From contig JAPKAM010000001.1 of assembly GCA_028825265.1 (NCBI GenBank), positions 386 through 64,385 of the forward strand: DNA of 64,000 bases. Reading direction: 5' to 3'. The translations under genes were made by a program, and so were the position numbers. This DNA is from Planctomycetota bacterium (GTDB lineage: Bacteria > Planctomycetota > UBA8108 > UBA1146). The notes below the pieces were generated by a model. That model was not told the DNA's origin. It did no database searches and worked only from the letters and a program-made list of their open reading frames with translations. This document shows, one piece after another, positions 1,004-31,082 of this stretch; position 1 is the first letter of the stretch, and the number at the start of each line of letters is the position of its first letter.

Positions 1004-2797
1004 TTGCTTCCCAGTCGAAGGCACTCCCCCGGCGACACCACCGATGCGGGGAGTTCACACGACGAGACCCGGCCGTTGAAGGTTCCTCGCCTCGACCAGA
1101 TCGGTTCCTTCTCCATCGAGGAGAAGATCGGTGAGGGCGGAATGGGCGTGGTCTATCGTGCCCGCGATCCGCGGTTGCAGCGAACCGTCGCCATCAAGCG
1201 GATCCATCCTCGCTTGCAAGAGAGCGTCGACATCCGAGAGCGGTTTCTGACCGAGGCTCGAGCCATCGCTGCCGTCAGTCACCCGAACATCGGCCAGATT
1301 CACGCCATCCACGAGGATGAAGATCCTCCCTATCTGGTGATGGAATTCCTCGAGGGGCCCAGCTTCGAGATCCAGGTCGAAAAACACGGCCCCCTGTCAT
1401 CTGCGGAAACGATCCGCATCGCCATCTCTGCCGCTCATGCGCTACGTGCTGCAGTCAGAAGCGGCATCATTCACAGAGACGTGAAACCATCGAACCTGCT
1501 GCAAGATGCTCGGGGAGTCGTCAAACTGGTGGACTTCGGGCTGGCCGGAAACCTCGGCGAAAATCCTCAAGACGATCCAGAATTATTGTGCACTCCCCAG
1601 TACGGATCTCCCGAACAGATCCAGGGTTGGGCTCTCGACGAGCGCTCGGACATCTACAGTCTCGGTGCCACGATGTTTCACTTGCTCACCGGGAAGCCGC
1701 CCTTTGAACGAGAATCTCGGGTCGATTTGATGGTCGCCCAGGTCAACGAACCCGCCAAGTTTCCTTCGTCCCTTCGTTCAGACATCCATCCGGAACTGGC
1801 ACTGCTGATCCTTCGGATGCTGGAGAAGCGTCCGGAAGATCGACCCCATGACCATGGTGAACTACTGACGGAGTTGGAGCAGTTACAGCGGAAGATCGCC
1901 CCCCCCGCCAGAACTCGTCTGACCGTTAGGCAGATCTCGCTGGCAGTGACACTGCTCCTCGGCGCCATCCTGCTGGGGACCTTCTGGCCCGAACCTCGAT
2001 CAGAAACCGGGATCCAGGTCGATGGCACCCTGCGGGGGATCCTCTCCAGTGCGGCCCCCTACGAACTACTCTCCTACGATTTCGATGGGGGCGGAGATCG
2101 CATCGAACGTTTCTTCAGATTTCCCGCCCTCCCCGAGAATGCCGGGGGGCATGTCCAGATCGCTCCCGTGGTCCGCGACGGCACATTACTGTGGGCTAAT
2201 GATCCACGTGCGATCTCCTTTCCTTACCTGAAGGAACTACGCAGGTGGCGCATCGATGGACTACGTTGCCTCGGCACTCCCGATCTGGAACTGAGAACGG
2301 CTCAGGATCCGGAACGACCCGGAGATCGACTGCGGATCGGTCTGGCGGTGGGACGCGGTGTCGCTCCGCGCATCGAGGTACTTCAAGGTGGAATACCCGT
2401 TCCCATCGAGGTGGAACAGCAATCGCAACTGACATTCATCCGGGAGGGTGTCGATCATTCCATCACCCTCGATCGAAGACCCTCCGAGGACCCTACGCGG
2501 GCCAGATACCGCCTCCAGATCTCGCGTCAGGACGGTTCCACAGATCTCGAATCCGCCAATCTCAACTCCGCCAATCTCGACTCCGCCAATCTCAATCCCA
2601 CCGATCTCAATCCGACCGGACTCATTTCGACCGTGACCTTCACTTTGCCAGTCGATGCGATTCCACGGGGAGCTCCTGCGATTCGTTGTGAAGGAGATCT
2701 GGCACGCTGGAATACTCGCATCGGCAGGGTACAAATTCTTGGTCTCCTCGACCGGGATCGCATCATGCGTAGCTGGATCCTGGAGGGCGGACCTTGA
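1004..2797 (+). CDS. Membrane Ser/Thr protein kinase (Hanks type) with one TM segment and C-terminal pentapeptide repeats
   Basis: Kinase motifs are present: GEGGMGVVYRARD (Gly-rich loop), AIKRI (Lys), HRDVKPSNLL (catalytic loop), DFGLA, SPEQ. TM segment ISLAVTLLLGAILLGTFW. Pentapeptide repeats ANLNSANLDSANLNPTDLNP are encoded by 15-bp DNA tandem repeats near 2530-2620. The start (TTG at 1004) is uncertain. Confidence 0.85.
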   Translation: MLPSRRHSPGDTTDAGSSHDETRPLKVPRLDQIGSFSIEEKIGEGGMGVVYRARDPRLQRTVAIKRIHPRLQESVDIRERFLTEARAIAAVSHPNIGQIHAIHEDEDPPYLVMEFLEGPSFEIQVEKHGPLSSAETIRIAISAAHALRAAVRSGIIHRDVKPSNLLQDARGVVKLVDFGLAGNLGENPQDDPELLCTPQYGSPEQIQGWALDERSDIYSLGATMFHLLTGKPPFERESRVDLMVAQVNEPAKFPSSLRSDIHPELALLILRMLEKRPEDRPHDHGELLTELEQLQRKIAPPARTRLTVRQISLAVTLLLGAILLGTFWPEPRSETGIQVDGTLRGILSSAAPYELLSYDFDGGGDRIERFFRFPALPENAGGHVQIAPVVRDGTLLWANDPRAISFPYLKELRRWRIDGLRCLGTPDLELRTAQDPERPGDRLRIGLAVGRGVAPRIEVLQGGIPVPIEVEQQSQLTFIREGVDHSITLDRRPSEDPTRARYRLQISRQDGSTDLESANLNSANLDSANLNPTDLNPTGLISTVTFTLPVDAIPRGAPAIRCEGDLARWNTRIGRVQILGLLDRDRIMRSWILEGGP

Positions 2798-4665
2798 GCA
2801 CTAGCCTCCACATCTGTACTCCTTCCGGCGGTTTTTATGTCGTCGAGATCTCGGTCGAACAAGCGATGAATGATGGACTGGTCATCGGCCGGGATCCCGG
2901 TGCTGACGTGACCATCGACGATGACGCTGCGAGTCGCTTTCACGCCCGCTTGAGTTGTAAGGACCAACGCTGGTACATAGTCGACCTGGAGTCATCCAAC
3001 GGCACCTATCTCAACAATGATCCTGTCCGACAATCGGAACTCGCACCTGGCGACTTGCTCGCCATCGGAGATAGCGAGATCCGACTCGAAGCGGCGATCT
3101 CAACCGCCTCGGAATCCCTTTCCAGAACCCAGGTAGTGCACCGAATCGATGTCGCTCCCGAGGAGTTGGACGGCAAACGAGCCGCCCAGGTGCTGGGAGC
3201 CCTGCACTCCTGCGCCCCGCTGTTGGGTCGCTCAGCCGAGGAGAACTCAGCGCGCCTGGAGAAAGGTCTACGGCTGCTGGTCGAAGGCACGAATGCGGAT
3301 CGGGGGGCCATCTTGATCAGTGAAAAAGAAGGTTGGCTCTGTCGCTCTGCATGGTCGCGTAGCGGAACCCCGATGCATGGATTCGTTCTGAGCCACACGA
3401 TTCACAGCGAGGTGATGCAATCCCGGCGAGCCGTGATCTCGCGTGACACCACCGAAGATCTCCGATTTGCGGACCGCCGGAGCGTCGTCGGAGATGAAAT
3501 TCGCTCGGTGATCGCGGCTCCGATCCCGGTCCACGATGGAATCGGAGGGATTCTTTACCTCGACCGCCTCGACGGAGACCAAAGACCCTTCGGCGACGAG
3601 GAATTGTGGGGCTCTGGAGTCGCTGCAGGAATCATCGGAGCGGGCTTCTCGGTCGGTGAAGAATTGATCGAGTTGTCCAGCGATCGTAAAGAACTGGTTC
3701 GAACCGTGATCGACTCGATGCCCATCATCGGGAACTCGCCGCAAATCGATCAAGTTCGCAACTTCATAAGAAAAACAGCTCCGACTGAAGGCACCGTGCT
3801 GATCCGGGGAGAAACCGGCACCGGTAAGGAACTGGTCGCCAGGGCGATCCACTACCAGGGCAGTCGTGCTGCGGCTCCCTTCATCGCGATGAACTGTGCC
3901 GCAATTCCTGAAAACCTGGTCGAGAGTGAACTGTTCGGCCACGAGAAAGGTGCCTTCACCGGTGCCGATCAGCGAAAGGCTGGCAAGTTCGAGGCCGGAT
4001 CGGGAGGAACAGTCTTCCTCGATGAAATCGGGGAACTGCCCACCTCTGCACAGTCTAAGATGCTCAGGTTACTCGAGGAAAAAAGATTCGAACGAGTCGG
4101 TGGCAACAACTCCGTCGAGGTCGATGTGAGAATCGTCGCCGCCACCCACCGTGACCTGCAAGAAGAGGTCGCACAGGGTCGCTTTCGTGAAGACCTGTAC
4201 TATCGACTTGCGGTGCTCGAAGTGGTGGTGCCGCCGCTCCGTGATCGACCCGGTGACATCGACTTGCTGGCAGAACACTTTCTCGATCTCTGCTGTGGGA
4301 GAAGTCGCCAGCGCAAGCAACTTTCTCGCAATGCCATGACTGCGATGCGGTTGCATTCGTGGCCTGGCAATGTTCGCCAGTTGAGAAATGTCATCGAGAG
4401 TGCCGTGATCCTGTCTCCCTCAACATTACTGGAAGTGGATGATCTTCGTCTCGATCACACCGCCAGCCGAAAGCCAAATCCATCGCCGACCCCGGAGTGG
4501 CAACCGGTCTCGATGAAGGAACTGGAGAGAGAGCACATCGCTCGGGTGCTCAATCATGTGAACTGGAACAAGAAGCGCGCGGCAGAAATTCTTGGAATCG
4601 AACGCTCCACGCTGTACTCGAGAATTCGCAACCTGGATCTGGAGCCGAGTAAGGGTCCCTCATGA
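2794..4665 (+). CDS. Sigma-54-dependent transcriptional activator with FHA, GAF, AAA+ (sigma54 interaction) and Fis-type HTH domains
   Basis: FHA motif VIGRDPGADVTIDD...SRFHARL...SSNGTYLN. Walker A GETGTGKE. Intact GAFTGA (GHEKGAFTGA). ESELFGHEKG. C-terminal HTH AAEILGIERSTLYSRI. Its ATG overlaps the kinase stop (ATGA at 2794-2797). Confidence 0.9.
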   Translation: MSTSLHICTPSGGFYVVEISVEQAMNDGLVIGRDPGADVTIDDDAASRFHARLSCKDQRWYIVDLESSNGTYLNNDPVRQSELAPGDLLAIGDSEIRLEAAISTASESLSRTQVVHRIDVAPEELDGKRAAQVLGALHSCAPLLGRSAEENSARLEKGLRLLVEGTNADRGAILISEKEGWLCRSAWSRSGTPMHGFVLSHTIHSEVMQSRRAVISRDTTEDLRFADRRSVVGDEIRSVIAAPIPVHDGIGGILYLDRLDGDQRPFGDEELWGSGVAAGIIGAGFSVGEELIELSSDRKELVRTVIDSMPIIGNSPQIDQVRNFIRKTAPTEGTVLIRGETGTGKELVARAIHYQGSRAAAPFIAMNCAAIPENLVESELFGHEKGAFTGADQRKAGKFEAGSGGTVFLDEIGELPTSAQSKMLRLLEEKRFERVGGNNSVEVDVRIVAATHRDLQEEVAQGRFREDLYYRLAVLEVVVPPLRDRPGDIDLLAEHFLDLCCGRSRQRKQLSRNAMTAMRLHSWPGNVRQLRNVIESAVILSPSTLLEVDDLRLDHTASRKPNPSPTPEWQPVSMKELEREHIARVLNHVNWNKKRAAEILGIERSTLYSRIRNLDLEPSKGPS

Positions 4666-5435
4666 TTCCCGTGATGCTCGCCTCCTGGATCGGATTGTTG
4701 CTGCCATTGCCGCAATCCGATCAGTCGATGATTCCCGCCGGACAGATCCCGGTAGGCATCTTGCTTCAGGGCTGGAGCCTGGCCACCGATCAGCAGGTGA
4801 TCTCGGAGAGTTCAATCCTGGGCCATCGATCGATCCTGTTATTGCGACCGCTGGCCCTTTCCACCTCGACCAGCACCATGCTCCTGAGAGCACAACTGAA
4901 GCAAGCGGGCATCGAACTGAAGCCGATCCGCCGCGGACTGGTTCGTGGTCCCCACTGGGCCACCACCGATCCTGACGCAGAGCCGCCGCTGGCTCGCTAT
5001 CAGATCCGGGTGATCCCGCTCCAGCACCTGGATCCGGAACCGATCTGCCAATTACTACGAGAAGACGCTCGCAAGCGCGAGCAAGAGATCGGACCGCTCG
5101 ATCGGTACAGTCGCTTTGTTGCCGATCCTCGGACCGGCTCGGTCATCATCTCCTGTACCTCTGCTCGGCGTCTCGAACAGTACCTGAAACTGCTCTCCGC
5201 GGCAGACTGTCCACCGGTGGCGGGGACCCAAAGGCCCGTGCTCCGCAACTGGTCCACCCGCTTTGGCCGCGCCAAGGAACTGGCCCTGGAACTGGATCGA
5301 GCCTGGAAAGAGCGCGGCGGACGGCCGATTCACGTGGTCGCCCATCGAGCCTCCAATAGCCTCATGATCCGGCTGCCCAAGCACCTCTGGCCCGCCGTCG
5401 AGAAGCTCCTCGATCAACTGGATCGCCCTTCCTGA
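4662..5435 (+). CDS. Hypothetical exported protein with one Secretin_N (NolW-like) type domain; possible T2SS accessory protein
   Basis: N-terminal hydrophobic signal or anchor MIPVMLASWIGLLLPLP. The segment YQIRVIPLQHLDPEPICQLLRE...DPRTGSVIISCTSARRLEQYLKLLSAAD follows the secretin-N domain pattern. Its start overlaps the activator stop by 4 bp. Confidence 0.45.
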   Translation: MIPVMLASWIGLLLPLPQSDQSMIPAGQIPVGILLQGWSLATDQQVISESSILGHRSILLLRPLALSTSTSTMLLRAQLKQAGIELKPIRRGLVRGPHWATTDPDAEPPLARYQIRVIPLQHLDPEPICQLLREDARKREQEIGPLDRYSRFVADPRTGSVIISCTSARRLEQYLKLLSAADCPPVAGTQRPVLRNWSTRFGRAKELALELDRAWKERGGRPIHVVAHRASNSLMIRLPKHLWPAVEKLLDQLDRPS

Positions 5436-5570
5436 GAGCCACTCTTGCCGGCTCCGTTGTGTTCGATTATCAAACACTCTCCACCCCAGATCAGTCAGAA
5501 GATCTCTCGTGATGGTTACCGGAATATGCATAACTCCTTTAATAAAATAAAGTTGTGGAACTTGCCCGGT

Positions 5571-5597
5571 TGGCATGGACGGGCATTTCATTTGCGT
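5571..5597 (+). promoter_or_regulatory. Candidate sigma-54 promoter (-24 GG / -12 GC) upstream of gspD
   Basis: Sequence TTGGCATGGACGGGCATTTCATTTGCG. GG at 5582-5583 and GC at 5594-5595 are 10 nt apart (GGGCAT-N5-TTGC), and an overlapping TGGCAT lies at 5572-5577. An AT-rich tract (TTTAATAAAATAAAG) lies just upstream. The site is ~150 nt 5' of the secretin ORF. Confidence 0.35.
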
Positions 5598-5745: not shown

Positions 5746-8100
5746 ATGAACCCGACGACGGAAGGGTGTGTCATAATGGCCCGCAATTCGAAGGTCTCCA
5801 CAAGCGAGACCCTGATCTTTACCTCCTGGATGGCCCCATTGGCCCTTCTGGTACTGTTCATCACCCTCAGCATCGTACTTCCAACTGCCATGCTGGCTCA
5901 GGATCCTCCCGATCCCGTCTCCGAAGAAGAGACGAGCGAGGAAACGGCCCGCGAAGGAGCCGCCACTGCTGCCGGAGCGAACGATTCGGATGTCTCCAAC
6001 CCGGCCATGTACCGAATGGAAGAAGGCAAGTTCCCCGTTCTGAGCCTGATGCGCTTCATCCAGCGCACCTCTGGCAAGTTCGTGAACTATCCCTCCGCTG
6101 GCAAAGATCCTGCATTTGCAGAGGAAACATTTGTCGATGTGGTGGGCGATGTCGATCCGCTGACCTATCCCATCGTCCAGGCGATTCTCGAGACCAACGG
6201 TTACGAGTTGTGGGAAAGCACACTCGATGACGGCACCGTGGTGATCAACGTCCGAGCAACCACCGCACGGACCCAGCCGCCCTCTGATCCGGTCAGCCCC
6301 ATCATCGAGGCGGGTTCCGATCAGGTCTCCGAGTCCGGCGATGAACTAGCAACGCTGGTCCTGCAACTGAAGCATGTCGAGACTGCAGTGGTTCGTCAGG
6401 CTCTCCAAGAGTTGCTCGGAATCCAGGGTGCCGGAAGTCAGAGTGGCAGTCTCAAGATTGTGACCGTGACCAATAACGAAACCCTCATCATCAAGGCCAA
6501 GATGCGCGTTCTCGATCACATCCAACGACTGGTCGAATACATCGATGTCGAGGTCCGTGGTCCCGAAGAGTTGCTCGTCATTCGCGAACTTTTTTACGCC
6601 GATGCCCAAGATATCGTGAGCATTGTCCAGGAAGCACTGAGTGACACATCATCCGCTGGATCCACGGGTCGTAGGACCTCAACTCCAACCTCCCAGGCAG
6701 GACGTGGCGGCAGCACCGCCAACCGGGGTTCAGTCGGTCGCGGAACTGGGCAAGTGGGAGAATCGACCCGCTTGATCGCTGACAATCGCACCCAAAAGAT
6801 TCTGATCCAGTCCTCGGACCCGGCAGAACTCGATCTGGTTCACCAGTTGATCGACGAACTCGACACCAAGGTGAGAAACATCCGCAACACAACCTGGATC
6901 TACAAGGTCAACTACCTCAAGGCAGAGGAACTGGCGGATAACATCCGGCAATTGGTCGAAGGATCGGAAGGATCCCTGCGCCGTGGATCCTCCAGCCGTG
7001 GCGGCACGAGCCGAACCTCCGGCCGAGGAACCACTGGTGGAGCCGGCGGAGTGCAGCAACAACAACAGTTCACTCCAACGCGGATCGTGCCCCACGAACA
7101 AACCAACTCGTTGATCATCCAGGCCGAGCCGGAAGAGTACGAACAGATCGAGGCCATCCTGAAACAGATCGACAAGCGTCGTCGTCAGGTATTCCTCGAG
7201 GTCGCCCTGGTGCAGGTGAAGGACAGTTCCAGTCTCAACTACACCCTCGAATTCCTCGCCGGAAACCTCGATGACCAGGCACTGACCGGCATCCTCTTGA
7301 GCTCCTTCGGTGCCAGTGAGGTCATCCCCAATGTCGATCCCAATGGCGTGATCACTGGAGTCAACAGAATCCCCGGCATCGGCGGGGCAGGACTCAACGC
7401 AATACTCCAGCAGGACGGTCAGTTCCCGTTGATCATGAGTGCCTTGAAGTCCGATGAGGATTCCAACATCCTCGCCACGCCGTTCATCCTGGCGGACGAC
7501 AATCAGGAGAACTCGATCTCGGTTCAAAACGAGATCTTCTACACCAGTTCTAACACCACCAACGTCAACACCACCACTTCTCAGCAATCAGAAAGTGCCG
7601 GAATCACTCTGTCACTGATCCCCACCATTTCCAGTGAGGTCGTACTGCTGGAGCTAGAGTTGGAAGTGTCTTCCTTCTCAGGGGTCTCCAACTCAACCGG
7701 CGCCCTCCCCGATCGATCGACGAATATCATCAGTTCAAAGGTGACGATTCCAGACGGCGGAATGTTCATCATCGGTGGATTGGCTCAAATGGCCGAATCG
7801 GAGGTCAAGAGCAAGGTACCCCTGCTGGGAGATCTTCCCTTCATCGGCACCCTGTTCCAGTCGAGTGGCTCTAACTCTACACGTGACAACCTGTACGTGT
7901 TCCTGAGTGCACACATCCTCGATGATGATCACTTCAATAATCTCGGCGACTTCACCAAGGACGCGATCCACGGGGTCCGTTCCTTCCAGGATGATCTGAG
8001 ACTTCAGCAGTTCACCGATCCAAATAACAAACGCGACCAGCAACTCGCTCCCTTGATCCGGCCAGGACTGACAGCCACCGAGGCGGAGAAAACACCATGA
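5746..8100 (+). CDS. gspD: Type II secretion system secretin GspD (N0-N3 domains plus secretin domain)
   Basis: Signal-like N-terminus. Repeated secretin-N modules (e.g. TWIYKVNYLKAEELADNIRQL). Canonical secretin motif VPLLGDLPFIGTLFQ and ...NLYVFLSAHIL. Confidence 0.9.
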   Translation: MNPTTEGCVIMARNSKVSTSETLIFTSWMAPLALLVLFITLSIVLPTAMLAQDPPDPVSEEETSEETAREGAATAAGANDSDVSNPAMYRMEEGKFPVLSLMRFIQRTSGKFVNYPSAGKDPAFAEETFVDVVGDVDPLTYPIVQAILETNGYELWESTLDDGTVVINVRATTARTQPPSDPVSPIIEAGSDQVSESGDELATLVLQLKHVETAVVRQALQELLGIQGAGSQSGSLKIVTVTNNETLIIKAKMRVLDHIQRLVEYIDVEVRGPEELLVIRELFYADAQDIVSIVQEALSDTSSAGSTGRRTSTPTSQAGRGGSTANRGSVGRGTGQVGESTRLIADNRTQKILIQSSDPAELDLVHQLIDELDTKVRNIRNTTWIYKVNYLKAEELADNIRQLVEGSEGSLRRGSSSRGGTSRTSGRGTTGGAGGVQQQQQFTPTRIVPHEQTNSLIIQAEPEEYEQIEAILKQIDKRRRQVFLEVALVQVKDSSSLNYTLEFLAGNLDDQALTGILLSSFGASEVIPNVDPNGVITGVNRIPGIGGAGLNAILQQDGQFPLIMSALKSDEDSNILATPFILADDNQENSISVQNEIFYTSSNTTNVNTTTSQQSESAGITLSLIPTISSEVVLLELELEVSSFSGVSNSTGALPDRSTNIISSKVTIPDGGMFIIGGLAQMAESEVKSKVPLLGDLPFIGTLFQSSGSNSTRDNLYVFLSAHILDDDHFNNLGDFTKDAIHGVRSFQDDLRLQQFTDPNNKRDQQLAPLIRPGLTATEAEKTP

Positions 8101-9800
8101 GACTCTCCCTCTTCAGCGACCTGATCGAAGAAGGACTCCTCAGCGAGGATCAATTGAACGAGTGCCAGCAGGAGGAACGCTCCACCGGCAAGGCACTCGA
8201 CAAGATCCTGCGTGAGAAGGGCTATGTCACCGAGGTGGCTCTGCTGGAGGCGCTGTCGAAGAGGCTACGCATCCCGTACCTCGCTGATCTCAGCGATTGC
8301 ACTGTACCTACAGAATTCACCCACATGGTGCCGCCACAGTTTGCGCGCACCTACAACCTGGTCGCCGTCAGCGAGACCCCGGGAGTGATTCATATCGCCA
8401 CCTGTGATCCGCTCGATGTCCAACCGATGGATGACCTCGCTGCAATGGTCGGAAGAGTCATCGAGCCGGTGATCTCCCCTCGCGCGGAAATCATCGCATT
8501 GATCAACCGAGCGTTCCAAAAATCGAGTGCAGATGTGGACGAACTTCTCGAGGGTCTCGACGAAGACGACCTGATCGGAATCGCCGCAGAAATCGACGAG
8601 ACTGAAGACGTACTCGATATCGCCAACAAGGCTCCGATCATCAAACTGATGAACACGATCATGTTCGAGGCGCAAAAGAACCGAGCATCCGACATTCACC
8701 TGCAGCCTTTTTCCGATCGGCTCCAGGTCAGGTATCGCATCGATGGAATTCTTTACGACACCAAGGTTATTCCCAAGAAGATCCAGGACGCACTCGTTTC
8801 CAGGGTCAAGGTGATGGGAAAGATGGATATCGCAGAGCGAAGGCTCCCTCAGGATGGTCGAACCTCACTCAGGGTCGGAGACGGCGAACTGGACGTGAGG
8901 ATTTCCTCGGTGCCAACCAGTTACGGCGAGAGAATCGTGTTCCGCCTTCTCGACAAGACGGCACGCCTCTACGAACTTGAAGAGATCGGACTCGATCGAG
9001 AGAACTACCTGATACTCGAAAAACTGATCAACTCTTCCCACGGAATCTTGCTGGTCACAGGACCAACCGGTTCTGGAAAGACCACGACCCTCTATGCCGG
9101 CCTGGCCGAGATGGACTCGCAAGAACTGAACATCATCACCATCGAAGATCCCATCGAATACAACCTCGATACCATCAGCCAGATTCAGGTTTCGACCAAG
9201 AAGGGTCTCACCTTCGCCTCCGGACTTCGATCGCTGATGCGTCAGGATCCGGATGTGATGATGGTGGGAGAGATTCGAGACGAGGAAACAGCCGGAATCG
9301 CTGTACAGGCATCGAATACCGGACACCTAGTCTTCTCTACCCTACACACCAATGATTCCGCCGGTGCGGTGACTCGAATGATCGATCTCGGAGTCGAACC
9401 TTATCTGGTTTCATCTTCGCTGATTGGCGTGGTTGCCCAGCGACTGGTGAGAGTGATCTGTCAACGTTGCAAGGAATCCTATGAGCCAGAAGCTAGCGAG
9501 CTCGCGAATCTTGGGCTAACCCGAGATGAACTGCTCGAAGGCATGCTCTATCGCGGTCGAGGCTGTGAAAATTGCCTGGGTAGAGGCTACTACGACCGGA
9601 CCGCCATCTACGAGATCCTGACCATCAATGAAACCATTCGAGATCAGATCATCGCACGCACCAGTGCCTCGGTGATCAAGCAGGTCGCCGTCGAATCCGG
9701 TCACCTGAAAACCTTACGTATGGACGGAGCCAAGAAAGTGGCTCTGGGAATCACCACGACCGATGAAGTTTTTCGAGTCACCCAGATGGATGTCTTCTAG
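8097..9800 (+). CDS. gspE: Type II secretion ATPase GspE (GspE_N domain plus secretion NTPase)
   Basis: Walker A GPTGSGKTTTLYA. Asp/His boxes; TGHLVFSTLHTNDSAGAVTRMIDLGVEPYLV. Tetracysteine motif CQRC...CENC. ATGA overlap with gspD. Confidence 0.92.
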   Translation: MRLSLFSDLIEEGLLSEDQLNECQQEERSTGKALDKILREKGYVTEVALLEALSKRLRIPYLADLSDCTVPTEFTHMVPPQFARTYNLVAVSETPGVIHIATCDPLDVQPMDDLAAMVGRVIEPVISPRAEIIALINRAFQKSSADVDELLEGLDEDDLIGIAAEIDETEDVLDIANKAPIIKLMNTIMFEAQKNRASDIHLQPFSDRLQVRYRIDGILYDTKVIPKKIQDALVSRVKVMGKMDIAERRLPQDGRTSLRVGDGELDVRISSVPTSYGERIVFRLLDKTARLYELEEIGLDRENYLILEKLINSSHGILLVTGPTGSGKTTTLYAGLAEMDSQELNIITIEDPIEYNLDTISQIQVSTKKGLTFASGLRSLMRQDPDVMMVGEIRDEETAGIAVQASNTGHLVFSTLHTNDSAGAVTRMIDLGVEPYLVSSSLIGVVAQRLVRVICQRCKESYEPEASELANLGLTRDELLEGMLYRGRGCENCLGRGYYDRTAIYEILTINETIRDQIIARTSASVIKQVAVESGHLKTLRMDGAKKVALGITTTDEVFRVTQMDVF

Positions 9801-9819
9801 AAGTTAGCCAGGAGCGCGG

Positions 9820-11034
9820 ATGCCAATCTACTCCTACCAGGCCGTCGATAGCCGTGGTCGCAACAAGAAGGGTACCATCGATGCCGATACGGCACGCGAT
9901 GGCCGCGACAAGTTGCGTCATCAGAAACTCCGCGTCACGAAGATGCAGAGGATCGATGCCATCGCTCGTGGAGGTGGGACTGCCGGCCGCTTCCAATTGC
10001 AGCGCAAGGCCAATATTCGTGACCTGGCCATCCTGACGCGACAGTTTTCCACTCTTCTCGCTTCCGGAGTTCACCTCTCGGAAGCGTTGACAGTTCTGGT
10101 GGAGCAGATCGAGGATCGAAGGATGGAAGTAATCTTTCGCGACATTCGCGAGAAGATCACTTCGGGAACGGGACTGGCGGATGCATTTTCACTGCACCCT
10201 GCATACTTCAGTGATCTCTACATCAACATGGTCCGGGCCGGTGAGGCGAGCGGGAACCTCGATGAGGTGCTATTGAGTCTCGCGAACTACCTGCAAAAAC
10301 AAGCATCCATCCGTGGGAAGATCTCCGCAGCACTGACCTACCCAGCGATCATGGTGATGGTCGGAATCATGGTCGTGTCCTTCTTGATGACCTTCGTTGT
10401 GCCAAAGATCACCGAGATGCTGCTCAAGAAGGGCAATGTCTTGCCCCGCCCCACCGAGATCCTGATCTTCATCAGTGACATGTTCAAGGCGTACTGGTTG
10501 CCGGGAATGATCTTCGCCCTGATTGCGATGGTCTTCTTCAGGGCCTTGATCGCTACCGAGAAGGGGCGGTTGATGTACGACACCTTCCTGCTGAAAATCC
10601 CGGTCATCGGATCCCTCTTGCAACGATCCGCCATCTCTAGATTTACAGTAACCCTGTCCATTCTGCTCAAGAGTGGACTGCCGGCCCTCGACGCCCTGAA
10701 CATCGTTGGAAAGGTCGTCAACAACGCACTGATGGCCAAGACCCTCGCTCAGGTTGCAGACCGAATCGTTGAAGGTGCTGACATCTCCACGCCACTCAAG
10801 AAATCCAAGATGTTTCCGCCCATGGTAGGCTACATGATCGCCGTTGGAGAGCAGAGTGGAGAACTCGAAAGCGTACTCGATCGGATCTCAGAGGCTTACG
10901 AGGAAGAGATCGATCTCTCCATACAGCGTCTGACAGCCATGGTCGAGCCGGTCATCATCGTACTACTCGCGGTGGCCGTTGGATTCATCGTCATGGCCGT
11001 ACTGTTACCACTATTGCAGTTCAACAACCTGTAA
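9820..11034 (+). CDS. gspF: Type II secretion inner-membrane platform protein GspF
   Basis: Two GspF/PilC-type repeats with three TM segments. Typical segments EALTVLVEQIED..., GEASGNLDEVL, and C-terminal VEPVIIVLLAVAVGFIVMAVLLPLLQF. Confidence 0.9.
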   Translation: MPIYSYQAVDSRGRNKKGTIDADTARDGRDKLRHQKLRVTKMQRIDAIARGGGTAGRFQLQRKANIRDLAILTRQFSTLLASGVHLSEALTVLVEQIEDRRMEVIFRDIREKITSGTGLADAFSLHPAYFSDLYINMVRAGEASGNLDEVLLSLANYLQKQASIRGKISAALTYPAIMVMVGIMVVSFLMTFVVPKITEMLLKKGNVLPRPTEILIFISDMFKAYWLPGMIFALIAMVFFRALIATEKGRLMYDTFLLKIPVIGSLLQRSAISRFTVTLSILLKSGLPALDALNIVGKVVNNALMAKTLAQVADRIVEGADISTPLKKSKMFPPMVGYMIAVGEQSGELESVLDRISEAYEEEIDLSIQRLTAMVEPVIIVLLAVAVGFIVMAVLLPLLQFNNL

Positions 11035-11081
11035 AACCTTCCCGGCAATTCCGGGATGAAATTAATGATTAGGAGGCGGCC

Positions 11082-11501
11082 ATGAACCGTCGAGAGCACA
11101 AACCGACAGCGGGATTTTCGCTGATCGAATTGATTGTCGTTATCACGATTCTAGGAATCCTTGCCAGCACCGTGGTAGTGAGCGTGTTCGGCCGATCGGA
11201 CCAGGCGAGAGTCGCCGCCGTTCGCGCAGACTTCAGCAGCATCATGACCGCTTCACGATTGTTCAGGGAAGACCACAAGCGTTGGCCTGACAACATCGAG
11301 GAATTGCTTTCTCCGCCAGCCACTCAAAACGGTTCCAATATCGATTACCTCTCTTCAGAGCCTCTCGATCCATGGACCCTCGAGTACTACTACTACGAGT
11401 TGGGTGATCGGGGTCCGCTTCTCATCTCCTTCGGAGCCGATGGCATCGAAGGTGGTGATGAGTACAACACCGATATCTACTCCGATGAGAGTGGACGCTG
11501 A
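11082..11501 (+). CDS. gspG: Major pseudopilin GspG
   Basis: Prepilin signal ...TAGFSLIELIVVITILGIL (G|F cleavage site, Glu+5). GspG hallmark ...DPWTLEYYYYELGDRGP...SFGADG. Confidence 0.9.
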   Translation: MNRREHKPTAGFSLIELIVVITILGILASTVVVSVFGRSDQARVAAVRADFSSIMTASRLFREDHKRWPDNIEELLSPPATQNGSNIDYLSSEPLDPWTLEYYYYELGDRGPLLISFGADGIEGGDEYNTDIYSDESGR

Positions 11502-11505
11502 GCTC

Positions 11506-12036
11506 ATGACTCGGCAAGCCACGACTGCAGGTTTCACCATGATCGAGTTGATCGTCGTCGTGACGATCCTCGGCCTGCTTGCATCGGTTGTGGCCCCGAG
11601 GCTTGACGGACTTTCACCCAAGTACCGCCTCCGATCCGGAGCCCGTACTGTCGGCCAGAATATCAGCTGGGCGCGAAGTCTCGGCGGCGGTGTCGGTGAA
11701 GAATACGTGATCCAGTACGATCTGGCCCAAAATTCCTTCACCATCGTCTTGCCTCCACAAGAAGATGAAGACCCCGAACTCGAGATCGACATGCGTCAGA
11801 CGATGGGAATTCTAACGCTTCCTGATGGGATCGAGATCAGCAAGATCATGCACCCCGATGGTGGATCCGATGCGTACGGAATTGTCGACATCACTCTCGA
11901 TGAGTACGGCACAACTGGATCTCACATCGTGATTCTGACCAATGAAAATAACCAATCGATTGCGGTCCACTTCGAGGCGATCATCGGCAGTATCCAGTAC
12001 AAGCCCGGCGACGAGGCGGAGTTCCCTCGATGGTAA
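11506..12036 (+). CDS. Minor pseudopilin (GspH-like by position)
   Basis: MTRQATTAGFTMIELIVVVTILGLLAS prepilin N-terminus. I place the start at ATG 11506; the track ORF 11404 would overlap gspG. Confidence 0.7.
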   Translation: MTRQATTAGFTMIELIVVVTILGLLASVVAPRLDGLSPKYRLRSGARTVGQNISWARSLGGGVGEEYVIQYDLAQNSFTIVLPPQEDEDPELEIDMRQTMGILTLPDGIEISKIMHPDGGSDAYGIVDITLDEYGTTGSHIVILTNENNQSIAVHFEAIIGSIQYKPGDEAEFPRW

Positions 12037-12503
12037 ATCATGACTCCAGGATGCTGAGCGCTCGGGATGGATTCACTCTCATCGAACTGGTGATGGCGTT
12101 GGCCATCATCGGCGGATCCTTCCTCACCCTGCTATACATGCGAACCGATGCCGTGGATCGAGCCTTCAACTACAATCATCAACGGTTGGTCGAACGTGTT
12201 GCGAGAGAATTACTGGATGAGGCGGCTTTTGGCATCTCGGAAGGGTTGGACGGAACGGCACAACTTCCTGGCAGCGACAGTTCTTCAACTGGCTGGCCCT
12301 GGTCCGCCATTGTGACGGATCTCTCCACCGAAGAGACCGGCCCACGACTGCTCGAGATCACCTTAACCCTCGAGTATCCGGGGCCCGATCTGATCAGTTC
12401 GGAAGAGTACGTCTTGACGACTCGAGTCTTAGTCGATGCCGATGATCCACTCGCCACCAATGCCCAGACTCTGAACTCTTATGATAATGGAGCGGGATTC
12501 TGA
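12030..12503 (+). CDS. Minor pseudopilin (GspI-like by position)
   Basis: ...SARDGFTLIELVMALAIIGGSFL prepilin N-terminus. Small size (157 aa). Confidence 0.65.
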   Translation: MVNHDSRMLSARDGFTLIELVMALAIIGGSFLTLLYMRTDAVDRAFNYNHQRLVERVARELLDEAAFGISEGLDGTAQLPGSDSSSTGWPWSAIVTDLSTEETGPRLLEITLTLEYPGPDLISSEEYVLTTRVLVDADDPLATNAQTLNSYDNGAGF

Positions 12504-13420
12504 TGTCACAAAAAGGATTCACCCTCATCGAACTGATCGTGGTACTGGGGATGTTCACCATCGTGATGTCGATGTGCTACACGATCCTCGACACCACCCT
12601 TGAGGCGGATCGAAGAATCCAGAAGGCCACTCTCACCGGCAAGGTTGGAGAGGCGATTCTCGGCCAGATGAGACGCGATCTTCAGGGCGTCGCCTGGCGT
12701 GGTCTCGGAACAGATGTTTTCCGTGGTGAAGATCGTGGCCAGGATGAGAATGCCGAGGACTCGATCGATTTCATCACCACTTCACCGGTGGCTGAGCCCT
12801 CAGAGGACACCCCCAACTGGACCGGAGAACTCAGTTCCATCGGCTACGCACTGCGACCAGGAAAAGATGGAGACAGCGTGCTGTTTCGCAGGATCTCGTG
12901 GGATCTGACCGAGGATTCTTTCGATTCCGGCGAGCGAAGTGCCATCTACGACCGAGTGATGGCTCTCAACTTCGAGTTCCTCGGAGAGGAGGGCGAGTGG
13001 CTCCAGGAGTGGGACGCCTCGACCTTGCTGCCGGACCAGAATCTGACCGACTTCCCCTACCTCGATGAGAGGGCGGCCATCGCAGCGATGGAAGCGGAGG
13101 AAGCGAGTGGGTCAGGCGGCGCGACCGGCGCATCGGGCACGGAGACCGGCACGGCGCCAGGATCGGTCCTGCAGCCGGGTGATATCGACCCCGCAACTGG
13201 CGAGGAGATCGTCGAGGAGCCGCTCCCACGACCTCTCCCCAGGGCTGTCCGCATCGTTCTTTACCTGCACTACAGCAATGAACAGGGACAGATCCTCAAC
13301 AACGATGGAACCCCGTTTGAGGAAGTTTTTTCGACCATCATCCCCTTGCTCTCTGCGGAGCAGATCCTGGTCGAGGATCCTGCATCCTTGCTGCTCGAGG
13401 GGAGCAACAGCAGCTTCTGA
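12503..13420 (+). CDS. Minor pseudopilin (GspJ-like by position) with acidic low-complexity C-terminal region
   Basis: MSQKGFTLIELIVVLGMFTIV prepilin N-terminus. Follows the GspI-like gene with a 1-nt overlap. Confidence 0.65.
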   Translation: MSQKGFTLIELIVVLGMFTIVMSMCYTILDTTLEADRRIQKATLTGKVGEAILGQMRRDLQGVAWRGLGTDVFRGEDRGQDENAEDSIDFITTSPVAEPSEDTPNWTGELSSIGYALRPGKDGDSVLFRRISWDLTEDSFDSGERSAIYDRVMALNFEFLGEEGEWLQEWDASTLLPDQNLTDFPYLDERAAIAAMEAEEASGSGGATGASGTETGTAPGSVLQPGDIDPATGEEIVEEPLPRPLPRAVRIVLYLHYSNEQGQILNNDGTPFEEVFSTIIPLLSAEQILVEDPASLLLEGSNSSF

Positions 13421-13530: not shown

Positions 13531-13653
13531 CAGATGCTCCTAGACGTACCTACAGCGGTAGAAGAGTATTTGACAGAGGGCCCTGCAACTGTGCCAAAAT
13601 CGCACATGCCCCCTCCCTAGGGCCCCATTCAAGCCTCTCCAGAGGCCCCTTTT

Positions 13654-13670
13654 TGGCACTGATGATGCTC
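13654..13670 (+). promoter_or_regulatory. Candidate sigma-54 promoter (TGGCAC-N5-ATGCT)
   Basis: TGGCACTGATGATGCTC. Perfect -24 hexamer TGGCAC at 13654-13659. GC at 13667-13668 is 10 nt after the GG. It is oriented toward the Kelch lipoprotein gene, ~450-530 nt away. Confidence 0.3.
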
Positions 13671-13730: not shown

Positions 13731-13870
13731 TCATCGACCTAGCAGCCATCGACCTAGCAGCCATCGACCTGGCGGCGACGGTGGACAGGGTTGCGCCGGA
13801 GAACTACAATCCGCCACTTGAGGAGAAGGTACTCCTGGAACTGAAGATACTCCTGGAACTAACGAGGAAC
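13731..13870. repeat. Short tandem repeats in an intergenic region
   Basis: AGCAGCCATCGACCT occurs in ~2.5 copies at 13735-13775. TACTCCTGGAACT x2 and GAACTAACG x2 occur at 13822-13870. Confidence 0.7.
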
Positions 13871-14116: not shown

Positions 14117-16018
14117 ATGAGCCCCCACGTCAGATCTCATCCGGAGTTTCACGGCTTCACCGATCGTCAAACCTCTCACTTCAGATGGATGGGTCTACTC
14201 ACCATCTGCCTTCCTATGCTGCTGGGATTCGTCGGATGTCACGGAGACATCAGCTCGGTTCCAAACATCAACAACGCTGCTGCGTTCCTCGAAGATAATG
14301 CGACATACATCGGCCCTTCGATGGTTTCTCCGCGTTATGGACACACGGCGACCACTCTTGAAGACGGAACCGTACTGGTGGTCGGTGGAAGTGATGAGAG
14401 ATTCCTCACCTCCCTCGATGTTTCAGAGATTTTTGACCAAGGAGCCAGTGTCGGTCTCAACCAAGCGATTCCCGACACGGTTTCCGGAGACTTCATCGAT
14501 ACCGATGTCGAGGGCAATCTGATGCTGCTCGCCCAAGGTGGCCGAGTCTTCCATACCTCCACCCTGCTACCCAACGGCAATGTGTTTATCTGCGGTGGAA
14601 CCGGAGATGCCCTGTTTGCCCAGGCCACCGAGGTGTCCGAGATCTACGACATCAGCAGTCGTGAATTTGCCCCGGATTTCCTCCAGTTGAACCAGGACAT
14701 GTCCATTCCGCGATTCCGCCACAGCGCCACTCTCCTGCCCAACGGCCGAGTTCTGATCGCTGGAGGCCAGGAATCAAGGTCAGAGACGATCATCGATCCG
14801 AATTTCGCACCGGGCCAACCCGGTTTCCAGGTCGATATCAACGTCTTCCCCTCTCTCAAGTCGATGGAGATTTTCGATCCCGGAGCCCTCGCCTTCATCC
14901 CCGCCATCTCGGCCAACGGTGACGATGCCGAATTCCTCAGTGCACGCGGTCGGGCGGGACACAGCATGCAAGGATTGGCTGGATTTGATGGGCTTCTGGG
15001 AACCACCGATGACATCCTCCTCAGTGCCGGGGGATTCCAGACTCTCTCGACCATCTTCGCTCCACAGTTCAAGATGCCATGGCAGCAGGACACCAGTAAC
15101 TCGGCCAATTTCGAGTACTTCGATGCCACCACAGGAGATAACCGGATCGCCGCGGGCATCGTCGCCGCTGAACGTGTCAACCAACCACAAATCATCAACC
15201 TGGGTATCCATCGCAGGTCGACCCTGGAGTTCGACTTTGATCCCGAGGATGGAATTATCGACATCCCCTCGATCGATGGATTGAACAATATCGTCCTGAT
15301 TGCAAATGGTGACAACGACGATCCTGCTTGCCCCACTGGTAGTGGAAGCAACGATCTACTGGTCGCCACTTTCAGCAATTTCGGACCTTCCAACGGACTG
15401 ACCTTTTCCCTCTTTGGCGGTGAGGCCACACTCTTCAACAACATCGAGTTGATCGTCTTCGACCCGATGAACTGTGCGTCCTTCTCTCGTAGTGAGGCAG
15501 ACCTGGTTCAGGTGCAAACTCGTCGGACTTACAATGGAGTAACGATCGCCACGACCGTTGGATTGAGCGCCGGCGGAGCCTTCGAACTTCCCACGCCCAA
15601 TGGTTGTGTCGAGTTGATGCAGGGTACCTGCGCCAACGGAATCGTCGGCGTGAGCATTTACGATCCGTTCTACAATGCGGCGAATGACCCCCCCTGGGAT
15701 CCGACCGACAACATCAATCCGATCACGCACCCGACTGGTATCTTCGGCACCTTCATCAACGTCGATGGAGTGATCGCGGATGACACCTTCGATGGGTTCG
15801 CCGACGGAAGCCTCCTGATCGCTCTGGCGCAGGCAAAGGTGCTTCACACTTTGAGTGTGGTTCCAGGTGAAGATGGCGTCCTCAACAGTGTCGATGACCG
15901 GGTCGTGTCGATCGGGGGCGGCGTCAGCTACTTCCCGAACTTTGGCGATGAACCGGCCACCATCAACTGCGAAGTGATCATGCTGCCAGGAACCAATGCG
16001 ACGAATCCGACTCCGTAA
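14117..16018 (+). CDS. Kelch-repeat beta-propeller lipoprotein
   Basis: The probable true start is M at 14189 (MGLLTICLPMLLGFVGC, lipobox LGFVGC). Kelch-type repeats: RYGHTATTLEDGTVLVVGG, FHTSTLLPNGNVFICGG, RFRHSATLLPNGRVLIAGG. Confidence 0.75.
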   Translation: MSPHVRSHPEFHGFTDRQTSHFRWMGLLTICLPMLLGFVGCHGDISSVPNINNAAAFLEDNATYIGPSMVSPRYGHTATTLEDGTVLVVGGSDERFLTSLDVSEIFDQGASVGLNQAIPDTVSGDFIDTDVEGNLMLLAQGGRVFHTSTLLPNGNVFICGGTGDALFAQATEVSEIYDISSREFAPDFLQLNQDMSIPRFRHSATLLPNGRVLIAGGQESRSETIIDPNFAPGQPGFQVDINVFPSLKSMEIFDPGALAFIPAISANGDDAEFLSARGRAGHSMQGLAGFDGLLGTTDDILLSAGGFQTLSTIFAPQFKMPWQQDTSNSANFEYFDATTGDNRIAAGIVAAERVNQPQIINLGIHRRSTLEFDFDPEDGIIDIPSIDGLNNIVLIANGDNDDPACPTGSGSNDLLVATFSNFGPSNGLTFSLFGGEATLFNNIELIVFDPMNCASFSRSEADLVQVQTRRTYNGVTIATTVGLSAGGAFELPTPNGCVELMQGTCANGIVGVSIYDPFYNAANDPPWDPTDNINPITHPTGIFGTFINVDGVIADDTFDGFADGSLLIALAQAKVLHTLSVVPGEDGVLNSVDDRVVSIGGGVSYFPNFGDEPATINCEVIMLPGTNATNPTP

Positions 16019-17141
16019 CTCGAAGCTGATCGACCGCTCACCTCATCGGCTTCCGGTGAAGTCCACCTCGAGGATTCGAGGATGGGGTCAATCGGGTCGC
16101 GTCCACAGCGCCATCCCCACCGTGCTCGCTCTGGTGGCTCTCGGCTGGGTGCTGGCGTACCTGTGGATCCCGACCCGATCACCTCAAACCAGCAGTCCCC
16201 AGACTGGGGTCACAGAAGTGATCCAGAAGAATCGATCGGGATCCCCGGCCACCGACTCCACCGGAACCACAGCTTCGGAAGCCCTCTCCCCACTCGACTC
16301 CCTCTCGCCGCAGATGAGAACCATTCGCGAGCAGTTGGACCGCTTGTTTCTTAAGACACAATGGAATCAAGCGATGGACGCGTCCACCGCTCACAGGGTG
16401 GCTCGAGCTCGTGAAGACCTGGAATCCTATCTCGATTCGCTCGCAGAAGAACATGTCCCGCTGCTGCTGGGCTTGCTGGCAGAAGAACCCGATTTCATCA
16501 ACCGCCGCTTCTTGCTTCGAGCGCTCGGGAAGATCGGGAACGATGAAGCTCTCGCAGGACTGCTGGATCATTTCAACTGGGCTGCAGGAAACTCCAAGGA
16601 AAGCGAAGTCAAGCACACCGTGGCGGCCCTCGCGGCAGCCAACAATGACCGATCTTTCCAGATTCTGAGCGACTACGCTGTCGCGGAGGAGACCGAAACC
16701 CACCGCTATCGATTTGTCGGTGCTCTCACCCAGCACTCGAGATCCGCCGATGCGATCGGGATCTACTCGGAGTTACTGACCGATTCTTCGCACTTCAGAG
16801 TGCGCCAGCGAGCCGCTTTTGGGATGAAGATCTCGGGCGGGATCGCACAGGCTCATGAGGTAGAAACAGCCCTTGTGGATGAGGGCAATCCATACGTTCG
16901 ACAATCATTCCTGGGGGCTCTCGGAGGCATACGAGATGTACGATCGGTTCCCCTGGTTAGCCGTATCCTGCAAGGGGATGAGGTTCTGGCCACCCGCGTC
17001 TCTGCAGTCAGGGCCTTGCTTCGCATCGAGGGAGATGCGGTGGTAGACGCCTTGAGGGCTGCCCGCGATGACATTTCTCAGCCACAGAGGGTCCACGAAG
17101 AAGTGCTCCGAGCCCTCGATTCGTTGGGAATCTCTGGCTAA
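15996..17141 (+). CDS. HEAT/PBS-lyase-type repeat protein with N-terminal membrane anchor
   Basis: TM segment IPTVLALVALGWVLAYLWI. Repeated ...RxxAxxALGxIG... units: RRFLLRALGKIGNDEAL, VRQRAAFGMKI, VRQSFLGALGGIRDVRSVPLVSRIL, RVSAVRALLRI. The start is uncertain (ATG 15996 overlaps the upstream gene; GTG 16057 is an alternative). Confidence 0.65.
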   Translation: MRRIRLRNSKLIDRSPHRLPVKSTSRIRGWGQSGRVHSAIPTVLALVALGWVLAYLWIPTRSPQTSSPQTGVTEVIQKNRSGSPATDSTGTTASEALSPLDSLSPQMRTIREQLDRLFLKTQWNQAMDASTAHRVARAREDLESYLDSLAEEHVPLLLGLLAEEPDFINRRFLLRALGKIGNDEALAGLLDHFNWAAGNSKESEVKHTVAALAAANNDRSFQILSDYAVAEETETHRYRFVGALTQHSRSADAIGIYSELLTDSSHFRVRQRAAFGMKISGGIAQAHEVETALVDEGNPYVRQSFLGALGGIRDVRSVPLVSRILQGDEVLATRVSAVRALLRIEGDAVVDALRAARDDISQPQRVHEEVLRALDSLGISG

Positions 17142-17256
17142 CGGGTCCGAGGCACTCTTGAGAATCGGCCGCTGCGATGTCACGATCCTACTCATGGCAG
17201 GACCCCGGTGCCTTCAGCACTGGATCACATCCCCAGAAGATGCAAGGAGAGGCTCG

Positions 17257-31058: not shown

Positions 31059-31082
31059 CGATTCCTCCTCAGCAACGGTAAA

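Follow-up and report, generated by a model that had tools for sequence, protein, structure and literature searches.

How a planctomycete decides when to build its type II secretion system (T2SS) is the question raised by the locus described here, which lies in a stretch of 64,000 nucleotides (hereafter the window) from a Planctomycetota bacterium (assembly GCA_028825265.1, contig JAPKAM010000001.1, forward strand). Elsewhere, T2SS expression is usually described in terms of quorum sensing, two-component systems or global regulators. In the window, the T2SS operon is preceded by the genes of a Hanks-type Ser/Thr kinase, of a sigma-54 enhancer-binding protein (EBP) carrying an FHA and a GAF domain, and of a small periplasmic protein (ORF3). 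According to our analysis, these genes probably form a module in which the kinase signals through the FHA-containing EBP and sigma-54 to switch on the T2SS operon. As judged from sequence comparisons, the module is real and conserved in a clade of uncultured marine Planctomycetota. Its genes, and those of the secretion machinery that follows, are arranged as listed below.

1004..2797 (+): Hanks-type Ser/Thr kinase gene, 597 aa, TTG start
2794..4665 (+): FHA-GAF-sigma-54 EBP gene, 623 aa, TTG start
4662..5435 (+): ORF3, third gene of the predicted regulatory operon, 257 aa, ATG start
5746..13420 (+): T2SS operon as a whole (Pfam, NCBIfam)
5746-8100 (+): gspD, secretin (NCBIfam 273.8 vs 351.35, below the cut-off)
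8097-9800 (+): gspE, ATPase (NCBIfam TIGR02533, 635.1 vs 630.25, passes)
9820-11034 (+): gspF, platform protein (NCBIfam TIGR02120, 425.8 vs 424, passes)
11082-11501 (+): gspG, major pseudopilin (NCBIfam 85.9 vs 88.85, below the cut-off)
~11404-12036, 12030-12503 and 12503-13420 (+): three N-methyl pseudopilin genes, the last one GspJ-like (Pfam)

The three regulatory genes are tightly packed. The TTG start codon of the EBP gene is written over the TGA stop codon of the kinase gene (ccTTGAgc, in the context ggaccTTGAgc) and is preceded by a GGAGG motif 8-12 nt upstream, while the EBP stop codon and the ORF3 start codon share an ATGA. The first-pass annotation of this DNA had placed the ATGA at the kinase/EBP junction and the pair immediately 5' of gspD; neither detail holds, as the former overlap reads TTGA and ORF3 (4662-5435) intervenes, a gene that the annotated interval did cover but that its text left unmentioned. 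ORF3 combines a signal-like hydrophobic N-terminus with two Secretin_N-type domains (Pfam Secretin_N E 2.4e-15, two stretches) and is devoid of the secretin barrel; an ORF3-like gene occupies the same position at all orthologous loci and aligns over its full length (19-66% identity). Between ORF3 and gspD lies a non-coding gap of 310 bp. Taken together, the gene layout indicates that the kinase, the FHA-GAF activator and the secretin-N protein are a three-gene regulatory operon attached to the T2SS locus. As for the machinery itself, GspE and GspF score higher with the T2SS models than with those of PilB and PilC (type IV pilus), and the T2SS model is still the top-scoring family for GspD and GspG despite the missed cut-offs. 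By sequence, the latter two are divergent planctomycetal versions, and their function in secretion is predicted.

The EBP is composed of the following parts.

aa 30-92, nt 2881-3069 (+): FHA domain (Pfam PF00498, 66.9 bits)
aa 155-271, nt 3256-3606 (+): GAF domain (Pfam)
aa 311-477, nt 3724-4224 (+): Sigma54_activat AAA+ domain (PF00158, 242.3 bits; AAA_lid_14 also matched)
aa 386-391, nt 3949-3966 (+): GAFTGA loop (sequence)
aa 574-612, nt 4513-4629 (+): HTH_8, a Fis-type helix-turn-helix (HTH) (Pfam, 47.3 bits)

Its input side is made of FHA and GAF domains instead of a receiver domain, as had been proposed at first reading and as the Pfam matches bear out. The residues involved in phosphothreonine binding (G32 R33, S47 R48 H50, S67 N69 T71) are shared by 103-111 of the 111 full-length homologs, the Gly-Arg, Ser-x-x-His and Asn signatures of FHA domains all being kept, and the domain is predicted to bind phosphothreonine. 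On the output side, the GAFTGA loop and the Walker A/B motifs (GETGTGKE, LDEIGE) are essentially invariant in the same 111 sequences, an intact AAA+ domain that is coupled to a DNA-binding HTH, as in other members of the EBP class. The homologs further keep a (T/S)-(Q/T)-(I/V) motif about 15 residues past the FHA domain, which is a candidate phospho-acceptor or FHA ligand; in the window EBP, the candidate residue is T112, within S-R-T-Q-V-V. An identical EBP sequence has been recorded for a Planctomycetota metagenome-assembled genome, on a contig of 73 kb.

The kinase encoded just upstream matches its description as a membrane Hanks-type kinase. Its Pkinase domain (aa 37-282, nt 1112-1849; Pfam PF00069, E 3.8e-49, 167.9 bits), predicted to be cytoplasmic, has the Gly-rich loop, the VAIK lysine, the HRD...N and DFG motifs and the (S/A)PE motif, and the corresponding residues (G43/G45, K65, E84, H157-R158-D159, N164, D177-F178-G179, P203-E204) are invariant in 8 orthologs, which gives it the appearance of an active enzyme. 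A single hydrophobic, presumably transmembrane, segment (~aa 309-326) separates it from a C-terminal domain of ~270 aa without any Pfam match. Orthologs of the kinase amount to ~55 full-length clusters, all from Planctomycetota or metagenomes. Two features of its C-terminal part deserve attention.

aa 329-597, nt 1988..2794 (+): periplasmic sensor domain, predicted ConA-like lectin/glucanase beta-sandwich
nt 2544..2633 (+): in-frame tandem repeat of 15 bp, ~5-6 copies, encoding ANLNS/ANLDS/ANLNP/TDLNP

The AlphaFold2 model of the sensor domain, computed from an alignment of 27 orthologs, reached a mean local confidence (pLDDT) of 87.4 and a global score (pTM) of 0.85, and the predicted fold is a two-sheet jelly-roll that superposes on legume or L-type lectins. 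Out of 1.84 billion representative proteins, an exhaustive profile search, superseding an earlier word-indexed search that had yielded 3 matches, recovered no more than 35 clusters. Since nearly all of these share the same kinase architecture, the sensor domain appears to be specific to this kinase family. The first-pass annotation had instead seen an extracytoplasmic pentapeptide-repeat domain here. We rejected it, because no Pfam Pentapeptide match was obtained (E <= 0.01), because there are only about five units and because they are missing from the orthologs (7/7 aligned kinases, as well as the 85%-identical P0125). What had been taken for such a domain is a DNA tandem repeat (Tandem Repeats Finder: a period of 15, with 4.8 copies over 2544-2614 and another 2.9 over 2591-2633) that forms a low-confidence loop in the model (pLDDT 49-59). 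By sequence and model alike, it is a lineage-specific loop insertion in the sensor domain, and such a surface loop might be hypervariable or prone to slippage. This correction leaves the proposed wiring from kinase to EBP to promoter unaffected.

If the module serves the secretion machinery, the two should stay together across relatives, and we therefore inspected the genes around EBP homologs at loci picked by falling EBP identity to the window: L001 (78%), L007 (70%), L002/L003 (57%, Planctomycetia bacterium TMED53, GCA_002167285.1), L004 (54%), L005 (44%, on a 7.87-Mb contig of ERZ25072999), L091 (44%), L087, L088 and L092 (42% each) and L089 (41%). Assemblies with the module include GCA_036338595.1 and GCA_050246115.1. 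The order kinase, EBP, small periplasmic protein, secretin, gspE, gspF, gspG, followed by pseudopilins, was found in all 11 distinct loci (window included; EBP identity 41-100%). A kinase/EBP pair beside unrelated genes, which would speak against a dedicated link, was looked for, and all 11 orthologous loci keep the T2SS; conversely, the co-occurrence of the pair with gsp loci that the first-pass annotation led one to expect holds over that whole range of identities. Because the genes 5' of the kinase vary by lineage (ArgZ-like in some, a glycosyltransferase and a leuA-type gene in others), the linkage between module and T2SS is not merely an inherited neighbourhood. Moreover, in 7 of the 8 lineages compared, the end of the kinase gene runs 4-23 bp into the EBP gene, and 18 further kinase clusters each agree with an EBP cluster in the length of their longest contig, which suggests that they come from the same contigs. 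Beyond the orthologous group, the paralogs at <=39% identity (L006 of Gimesia aquarii, L090, and L093 of a Gemmataceae) have neither the kinase nor T2SS genes nearby (0/3). As these T2SS-less FHA-GAF-EBP paralogs also lack the kinase, kinase and EBP appear to travel as a pair.

A few observations on the surroundings of such EBPs can be added. NtrC-type EBP genes neighbour the module in L001 and L002. In L006 (10001-14383; Gimesia aquarii CP037920.1), the kinase-less FHA-GAF-EBP paralog sits between N_methyl/SBP_bac_10 (DUF1559-type) prepilin-like genes, which hints that other planctomycetal FHA-EBPs also regulate type IV filament-related genes. A profile search of genome contigs with the FHA-GAF alignment settled on the generic FHA motif DL[GED]S[SR]N and mostly returned unrelated FHA proteins (from Acidobacteriota, Gemmatimonadota, Myxococcota and others), with L007 as the only ortholog. 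Six metagenome-assembled genomes of Acidobacteriota (L008, L011, L018, L021, L026, L030) encode FHA-GAF-sigma-54 EBPs with the same domain order, and neither an adjacent kinase nor secretion genes were found within the fetched flanks.

The same synteny bears on a first alternative, in which the kinase would act mainly post-translationally on the secretion machinery, as PpkA and Fha1 do in type VI secretion systems (T6SS), while the EBP would be a separate regulator, its FHA domain serving as a scaffold or as a reader of another kinase, so that the two would share a target without any linear relay. At face value, T6SS loci offer a precedent, since they too encode a Ser/Thr kinase, together with an FHA protein and with a sigma-54 EBP (VasH, Sfa2), which work at different levels, the kinase/FHA branch controlling assembly post-translationally and the EBP controlling transcription independently (PMC10482370). 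Besides, the secretin might be contacted by ORF3 as well as by the periplasmic part of the kinase, and Planctomycetota encode many kinases. However, FHA protein and EBP are separate proteins in T6SS loci, whereas in the module a single polypeptide joins the FHA domain to the activator and not to a structural component, the machine being a T2SS. Furthermore, no stand-alone FHA gene was seen in the window or at the orthologous loci and no PP2C gene accompanies the kinase, and a threonine phosphorylation pathway of the T6SS type (PpkA/PppA/Fha) was rejected on these two grounds. Considering in addition the overlap of the kinase and EBP genes in most lineages and the kinase-less state of the T2SS-less paralogs, we regard this alternative as unlikely and favour a relay from kinase to EBP.

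Such a relay would end at a promoter, and the gap between ORF3 and gspD contains three elements of interest, all on the coding strand.

5459..5477 (+): candidate enhancer (upstream activating sequence, UAS), the 19-bp palindrome GTGTTCGATTATCAAACAC of TGT-N11-ACA type, lying 123 bp 5' of the -24 GG
5514..5537 (+): second conserved non-coding block GGTTACCGGAATATGCATAACTCC, then AT-rich AAATAAAGTTG (invariant columns of a 4-way gap alignment)
5581..5596 (+): sigma-54-type promoter GGGCATTTCATTTGCG (GGGCAT-TTCAT-TTGCG), GG at 5582-5583 and GC at 5594-5595

The predicted transcript would start at ~5607, ~140 nt ahead of the gspD ATG. The first-pass annotation was right about a sigma-54-like element in this gap, though not about its site, as the TGGCAT at 5571 was rejected as a -24 element for its GG-N9-GC spacing. 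Two copies of the core GGCA-N6-TTGC are present in 128 kb (both strands) against 2.04 matches expected, the other copy being inside thiG, and the chance of finding the core in that gap and on that strand is ~0.005. It is the conservation of the element across lineages that makes it convincing, the window alone being weak evidence. L001 and L007 have exactly the same element and L002 one that is almost the same (GGGCATTTGATTTGCT), inside a block of non-coding conservation. In the same gap of distant lineages, we found TGGCACGGCCCTTGCT in L088 (12/12 to the extended consensus), TGGCCCCGCCTTTGCT in L005 and GG-N8-TTGC in L004, L087 and L089. Altogether, GG-N8-TTGC stands on the coding strand of the secretin-upstream gap in 7/7 independent lineages (joint chance ~2e-7), while two loci held out from the analysis have TGGCCTGACGTTTGCT (L091) and TGGCATAGGCATTGCA (L092, 11/12).

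The palindrome shows a similar behaviour. Its consensus GTGTTYGATnnTnAAMCAC is found in most lineages, with close matches at the equivalent place in L001, L007, L002 and L088 and variants in L005 and L089 (weaker in the latter, P 0.03), and its distance to the GG is 123-149 bp across nine loci, which is typical for an enhancer. A position weight matrix (PWM) was built from seven sites, only L005, L089, L091 and L092 being out of sample. Its top 9 of ~190,000 positions at the orthologous loci all fall in secretin-upstream or kinase-upstream gaps, including two out-of-sample ones in L005. L091 and L092 were fetched afterwards as a held-out test, and in each of them the top two hits over ~22 kb lie one in the secretin-upstream region and one in the kinase-upstream gap (chance of such a placement by region size: ~1e-3 per locus), with 141-146 bp between the secretin-side site and a strong -24/-12 element downstream of it. 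With a -24 GG/-12 GC promoter and an upstream site, the gspD gap thus has in silico the make-up of an EBP target. The recognition helix of the EBP points in the same direction: it reads IER[S/C]TLY[S/A][K/R] in the T2SS-linked orthologs vs IERSTLDRK in the unlinked paralogs, a difference that parallels the presence of the palindrome and fits a DNA-binding specificity confined to the orthologs. The palindrome also occurs 5' of the kinase gene in L087 (8085), L088 (8153), L005 (8143), L091 (7984) and L092 (8046) and is absent there from the window's own lineage (window, L001, L002), a distribution suggesting that the regulatory operon may be autoregulated in distant lineages. In the window, AGGTAGCTCACTTGCT at 993 was considered as promoter of the kinase gene and rejected (weak, overlapping the TTG start, unconserved). 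Finally, the block at 5514-5537, situated 3' of the UAS and 5' of the promoter, might bind the activator a second time or serve to bend the DNA; on visual inspection, L005 has a string resembling it, TACCGGAA...GCATAA, about equally far from its -24 element.

One may object that neither the -24/-12 match nor the palindrome belongs to a sigma-54 promoter, the T2SS being read from a sigma-70-type promoter and the EBP regulating distant genes. The window element is indeed imperfect and its core is no more frequent than chance predicts; likewise, a perfect sigma-54 consensus (TGGCACTTCGGTTGCA, 36633-36648) is found inside thiG, 355 nt before an Rce1-like CAAX protease gene, where it is probably a meaningless chance match. 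Yet the position of the element is conserved in 9 loci (EBP 41-100%), with matches as good as those of L092 and L088, the spacing to the palindrome is constant and no sigma-70-like promoter was found in the gap before gspD, all of which makes this objection highly improbable. Rfam and tRNA scans of the whole window returned nothing, hence no known riboswitch in the 140-nt gspD leader.

A further alternative accepts the promoter and concerns the signal: the EBP might be controlled mainly by a small ligand of its GAF domain, as are NifA, NorR and FhlA, with the kinase/FHA input being modulatory or serving membrane localisation. The resemblance to NifA-type activators is genuine, as these share the GAF-AAA+-HTH_8 core and a TGT-N(10/11)-ACA site ~100-150 bp from a -24/-12 promoter, the TGT-N11-ACA UAS being near the TGT-N10-ACA type of NifA. 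The GAF domain is also kept in most orthologs, and the best NCBIfam match of the EBP is the NifA model TIGR01817, which spans the GAF-AAA+-HTH region (aa 142-582 only) with 376.9 bits. This score is nevertheless below the equivalog cut-off of 528.85, for which reason the EBP was not accepted as a NifA; it differs from NifA by its added N-terminal FHA domain, its T2SS target and the lack of nif genes. Against a leading role for a GAF ligand, the GAF domain is the least conserved region of the EBP, in contrast to the near-invariant phosphothreonine-binding residues of the FHA domain, and the L088 group (P0061-P0080, 586 aa) has no Pfam-detectable GAF domain, yet keeps kinase, FHA, UAS and a perfect promoter. 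We thus consider it improbable that the GAF domain is in command and retain the kinase as the probable main input.

Around the T2SS operon, additional elements of the same kinds can be recognized.

13590-13606 (+): palindrome TGTGCCAAAATCGCACA, TGT-N11-ACA, conserved in the alignment, upstream of TGGCACTGATGATGCT
13654-13669 (+): second sigma-54-like promoter TGGCACTGATGATGCT, 10/12, after the last pseudopilin gene and 5' of a Kelch-repeat gene (14117-16018)
24716-24701 (-): third sigma-54-like element TGGCATGAGATCTGCC, ~30 nt before the ATG of a divergent operon

The second promoter is kept at the same position in L001 (TGGCACTGATGATGCA, 20911), L002 (TGGCACCACAATTGCA, 20977) and L004 (TGGCTCGTACAATGCA, 21407). 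The divergent operon behind the third element (24674-19572, minus strand) encodes a PilX_N protein, a protein without assigned function, a PilM-like protein and another one without assigned function, and a palindrome-like site lies at 24849-24867, ~150 bp upstream of TGGCATGAGATCTGCC (PWM rank 10 of ~190,000). On sequence grounds, the second promoter before the Kelch gene, possibly along with the third one on the opposite strand, suggests a small local regulon. In this respect, a 2025 in-silico survey of the sigma-54 regulon found sigma-54 promoters to be slightly enriched at COG2165 pseudopilin genes in Planctomycetia (PMC12316311).

Several neighbours of the T2SS genes are worth recording. 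The leader of the Kelch gene, ~450 nt long, carries the direct 15-mer repeat catcgacctagcagc three times (13733-13777). Two large Kelch/beta-propeller proteins and a HEAT-repeat protein are encoded after the pseudopilin genes (14117-19401), with Kelch genes downstream in L001, L002 and L004 too, and these proteins may be accessory parts or cargo of the T2SS. An RND efflux operon (24862-32507, minus strand), with two tandem AcrB-type pumps and an HlyD-type adaptor, adjoins the T2SS-accessory operon. Farther away, a 1654-aa subtilase with five PKD domains (56119-61083, minus strand) is a plausible secreted substrate of the T2SS. As to GspE, it has an N-terminal MshEN domain (aa 9-55 and 57-143) and narrowly exceeds the cut-off of the NCBIfam model for the cyclic di-GMP (c-di-GMP)-binding motif (39.5 vs 38 bits); c-di-GMP may therefore act on the GspE ATPase on top of transcriptional control.

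In functional terms, the module would work as follows. The lectin-fold periplasmic domain would sense an extracytoplasmic cue, possibly a glycan or else the assembly state of the secretin and ORF3. Once activated, the kinase would autophosphorylate on threonine and/or phosphorylate the EBP, and the FHA domain would read phosphothreonine either on the kinase or on the T-Q/T-I/V motif just past the FHA domain, which would relieve inhibition or promote assembly of the AAA+ ring, the GAF domain perhaps bringing a second, small-molecule input. The EBP would bind the 19-bp TGT-N11-ACA palindrome ~125-150 bp upstream of the -24/-12 promoter, and its GAFTGA loop would remodel the sigma-54 RNA polymerase so as to turn on gspDEFG and the pseudopilin genes. 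It would probably also activate the promoter of the Kelch gene, and in distant lineages the palindrome upstream of the kinase would serve autoregulation.

A number of points weigh against this scheme. Regarding the promoter, the window element matches only 8/12 positions of the extended consensus (G for T at -26, T for C at -21), and an equal-weight 12-position score is not significant, neither for the window gap alone (P ~0.24) nor for L004 and L087. Because of this, we relied on the GG-N8-TTGC core and its cross-lineage conservation, a choice that is partly post hoc, both the GG-N8-TTGC pattern and the palindrome PWM having been fixed after some loci had been seen. In L004 and L087, the palindrome scores low or fails to reach significance; in L004, 261 bp separate the kinase gene from that of the EBP; and the identity of the palindrome-binding protein is deduced. 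Turning to the proteins, the activation loop of the window kinase has few threonines, no PP2C phosphatase gene was seen in the window or at the orthologous loci, and the ConA-like fold also serves protein-protein contacts, which leaves glycan sensing a guess. Moreover, rpoN was not found within the 64-kb window, although the gene has been reported in Rhodopirellula baltica (PMC2754498). More generally, we observe domain content, gene order, overlaps, promoter, palindrome and a predicted fold, and from these we infer all the biochemical steps. On balance, the phospho-threonine relay gating the secretion genes, as envisaged by the first-pass annotation, is supported by synteny, gene overlap and the conservation of both promoter and palindrome.

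How does this arrangement compare with known regulators? Genome analysis had already revealed sigma-54 activators with an FHA domain in 2005. Those of Myxococcus xanthus were described in that year by Jelsbak, Givskov and Kaiser (PNAS 102:3010, cited in PMC12288465 and PMC4320627). Like the window EBP, they are AAA+ sigma-54 activators in which an N-terminal FHA domain replaces the receiver, implying an input from a Ser/Thr kinase. The window EBP differs from them by its extra GAF domain, by the overlapping and co-conserved gene of a cognate kinase, by its target (the T2SS operon instead of developmental genes), by its planctomycetal host, and by an HTH signature and a UAS that are specific to its orthologous group. 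In the PilS-PilR system, PilR is a receiver-domain sigma-54 response regulator that is driven by a histidine kinase and controls the pilin gene. It resembles the window EBP in being a sigma-54 activator dedicated to a machine of the type IV filament family, but its input is a receiver domain with a histidine kinase and its target a pilin gene, not a secretin/ATPase operon. A parallel for the upstream half of the relay is the PknH-EmbR pair of Mycobacterium tuberculosis, where the kinase phosphorylates an FHA transcription factor encoded next to it in an FHA-dependent manner (PMC8636726, PMC9239209). Both cases associate a membrane Hanks kinase bearing an extracytoplasmic sensor with the neighbouring gene of an FHA-containing transcription factor, except that EmbR, whose FHA domain is C-terminal, activates sigma-70 promoters as a protein of the SARP/OmpR type, not as an AAA+ sigma-54 activator, and has arabinosyltransferase genes as targets.

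The components of the module are thus of known kinds (FHA-EBPs, kinase-to-FHA regulators, secretion loci with their own EBP), while their combination had not been described before: full-text literature searches turned up no account of a T2SS with such a kinase/FHA-EBP cassette attached, and in the literature searched no cognate kinase was tied to an FHA-containing sigma-54 activator. We tentatively go one step further, to a reading that we hold with less confidence than the relay itself, in which this would be the first cognate, genetically linked pair of a Ser/Thr kinase and a sigma-54 activator, FHA-read phosphothreonine replacing the aspartyl phosphorylation of a receiver, and in which the module would also close a substrate- or assembly-sensing loop, the lectin-fold domain detecting either a polysaccharide (likely a substrate of the secreted enzymes) or secretin-docked ORF3 and thereby calling for the T2SS and Kelch genes.

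The way in which phosphothreonine would act as a switch for an AAA+ activator is, to our knowledge, not known. With its clean overlapping-gene pair, a defined target promoter and a candidate enhancer, the module would make the switching of FHA-EBPs testable. Planctomycetota are abundant marine degraders of polysaccharides, and their secretion biology is almost unstudied. The lectin fold predicted for the sensor points to environmental glycans as a possible cue, and the module as a whole offers a first concrete hypothesis for the control of T2SS expression in Planctomycetota.

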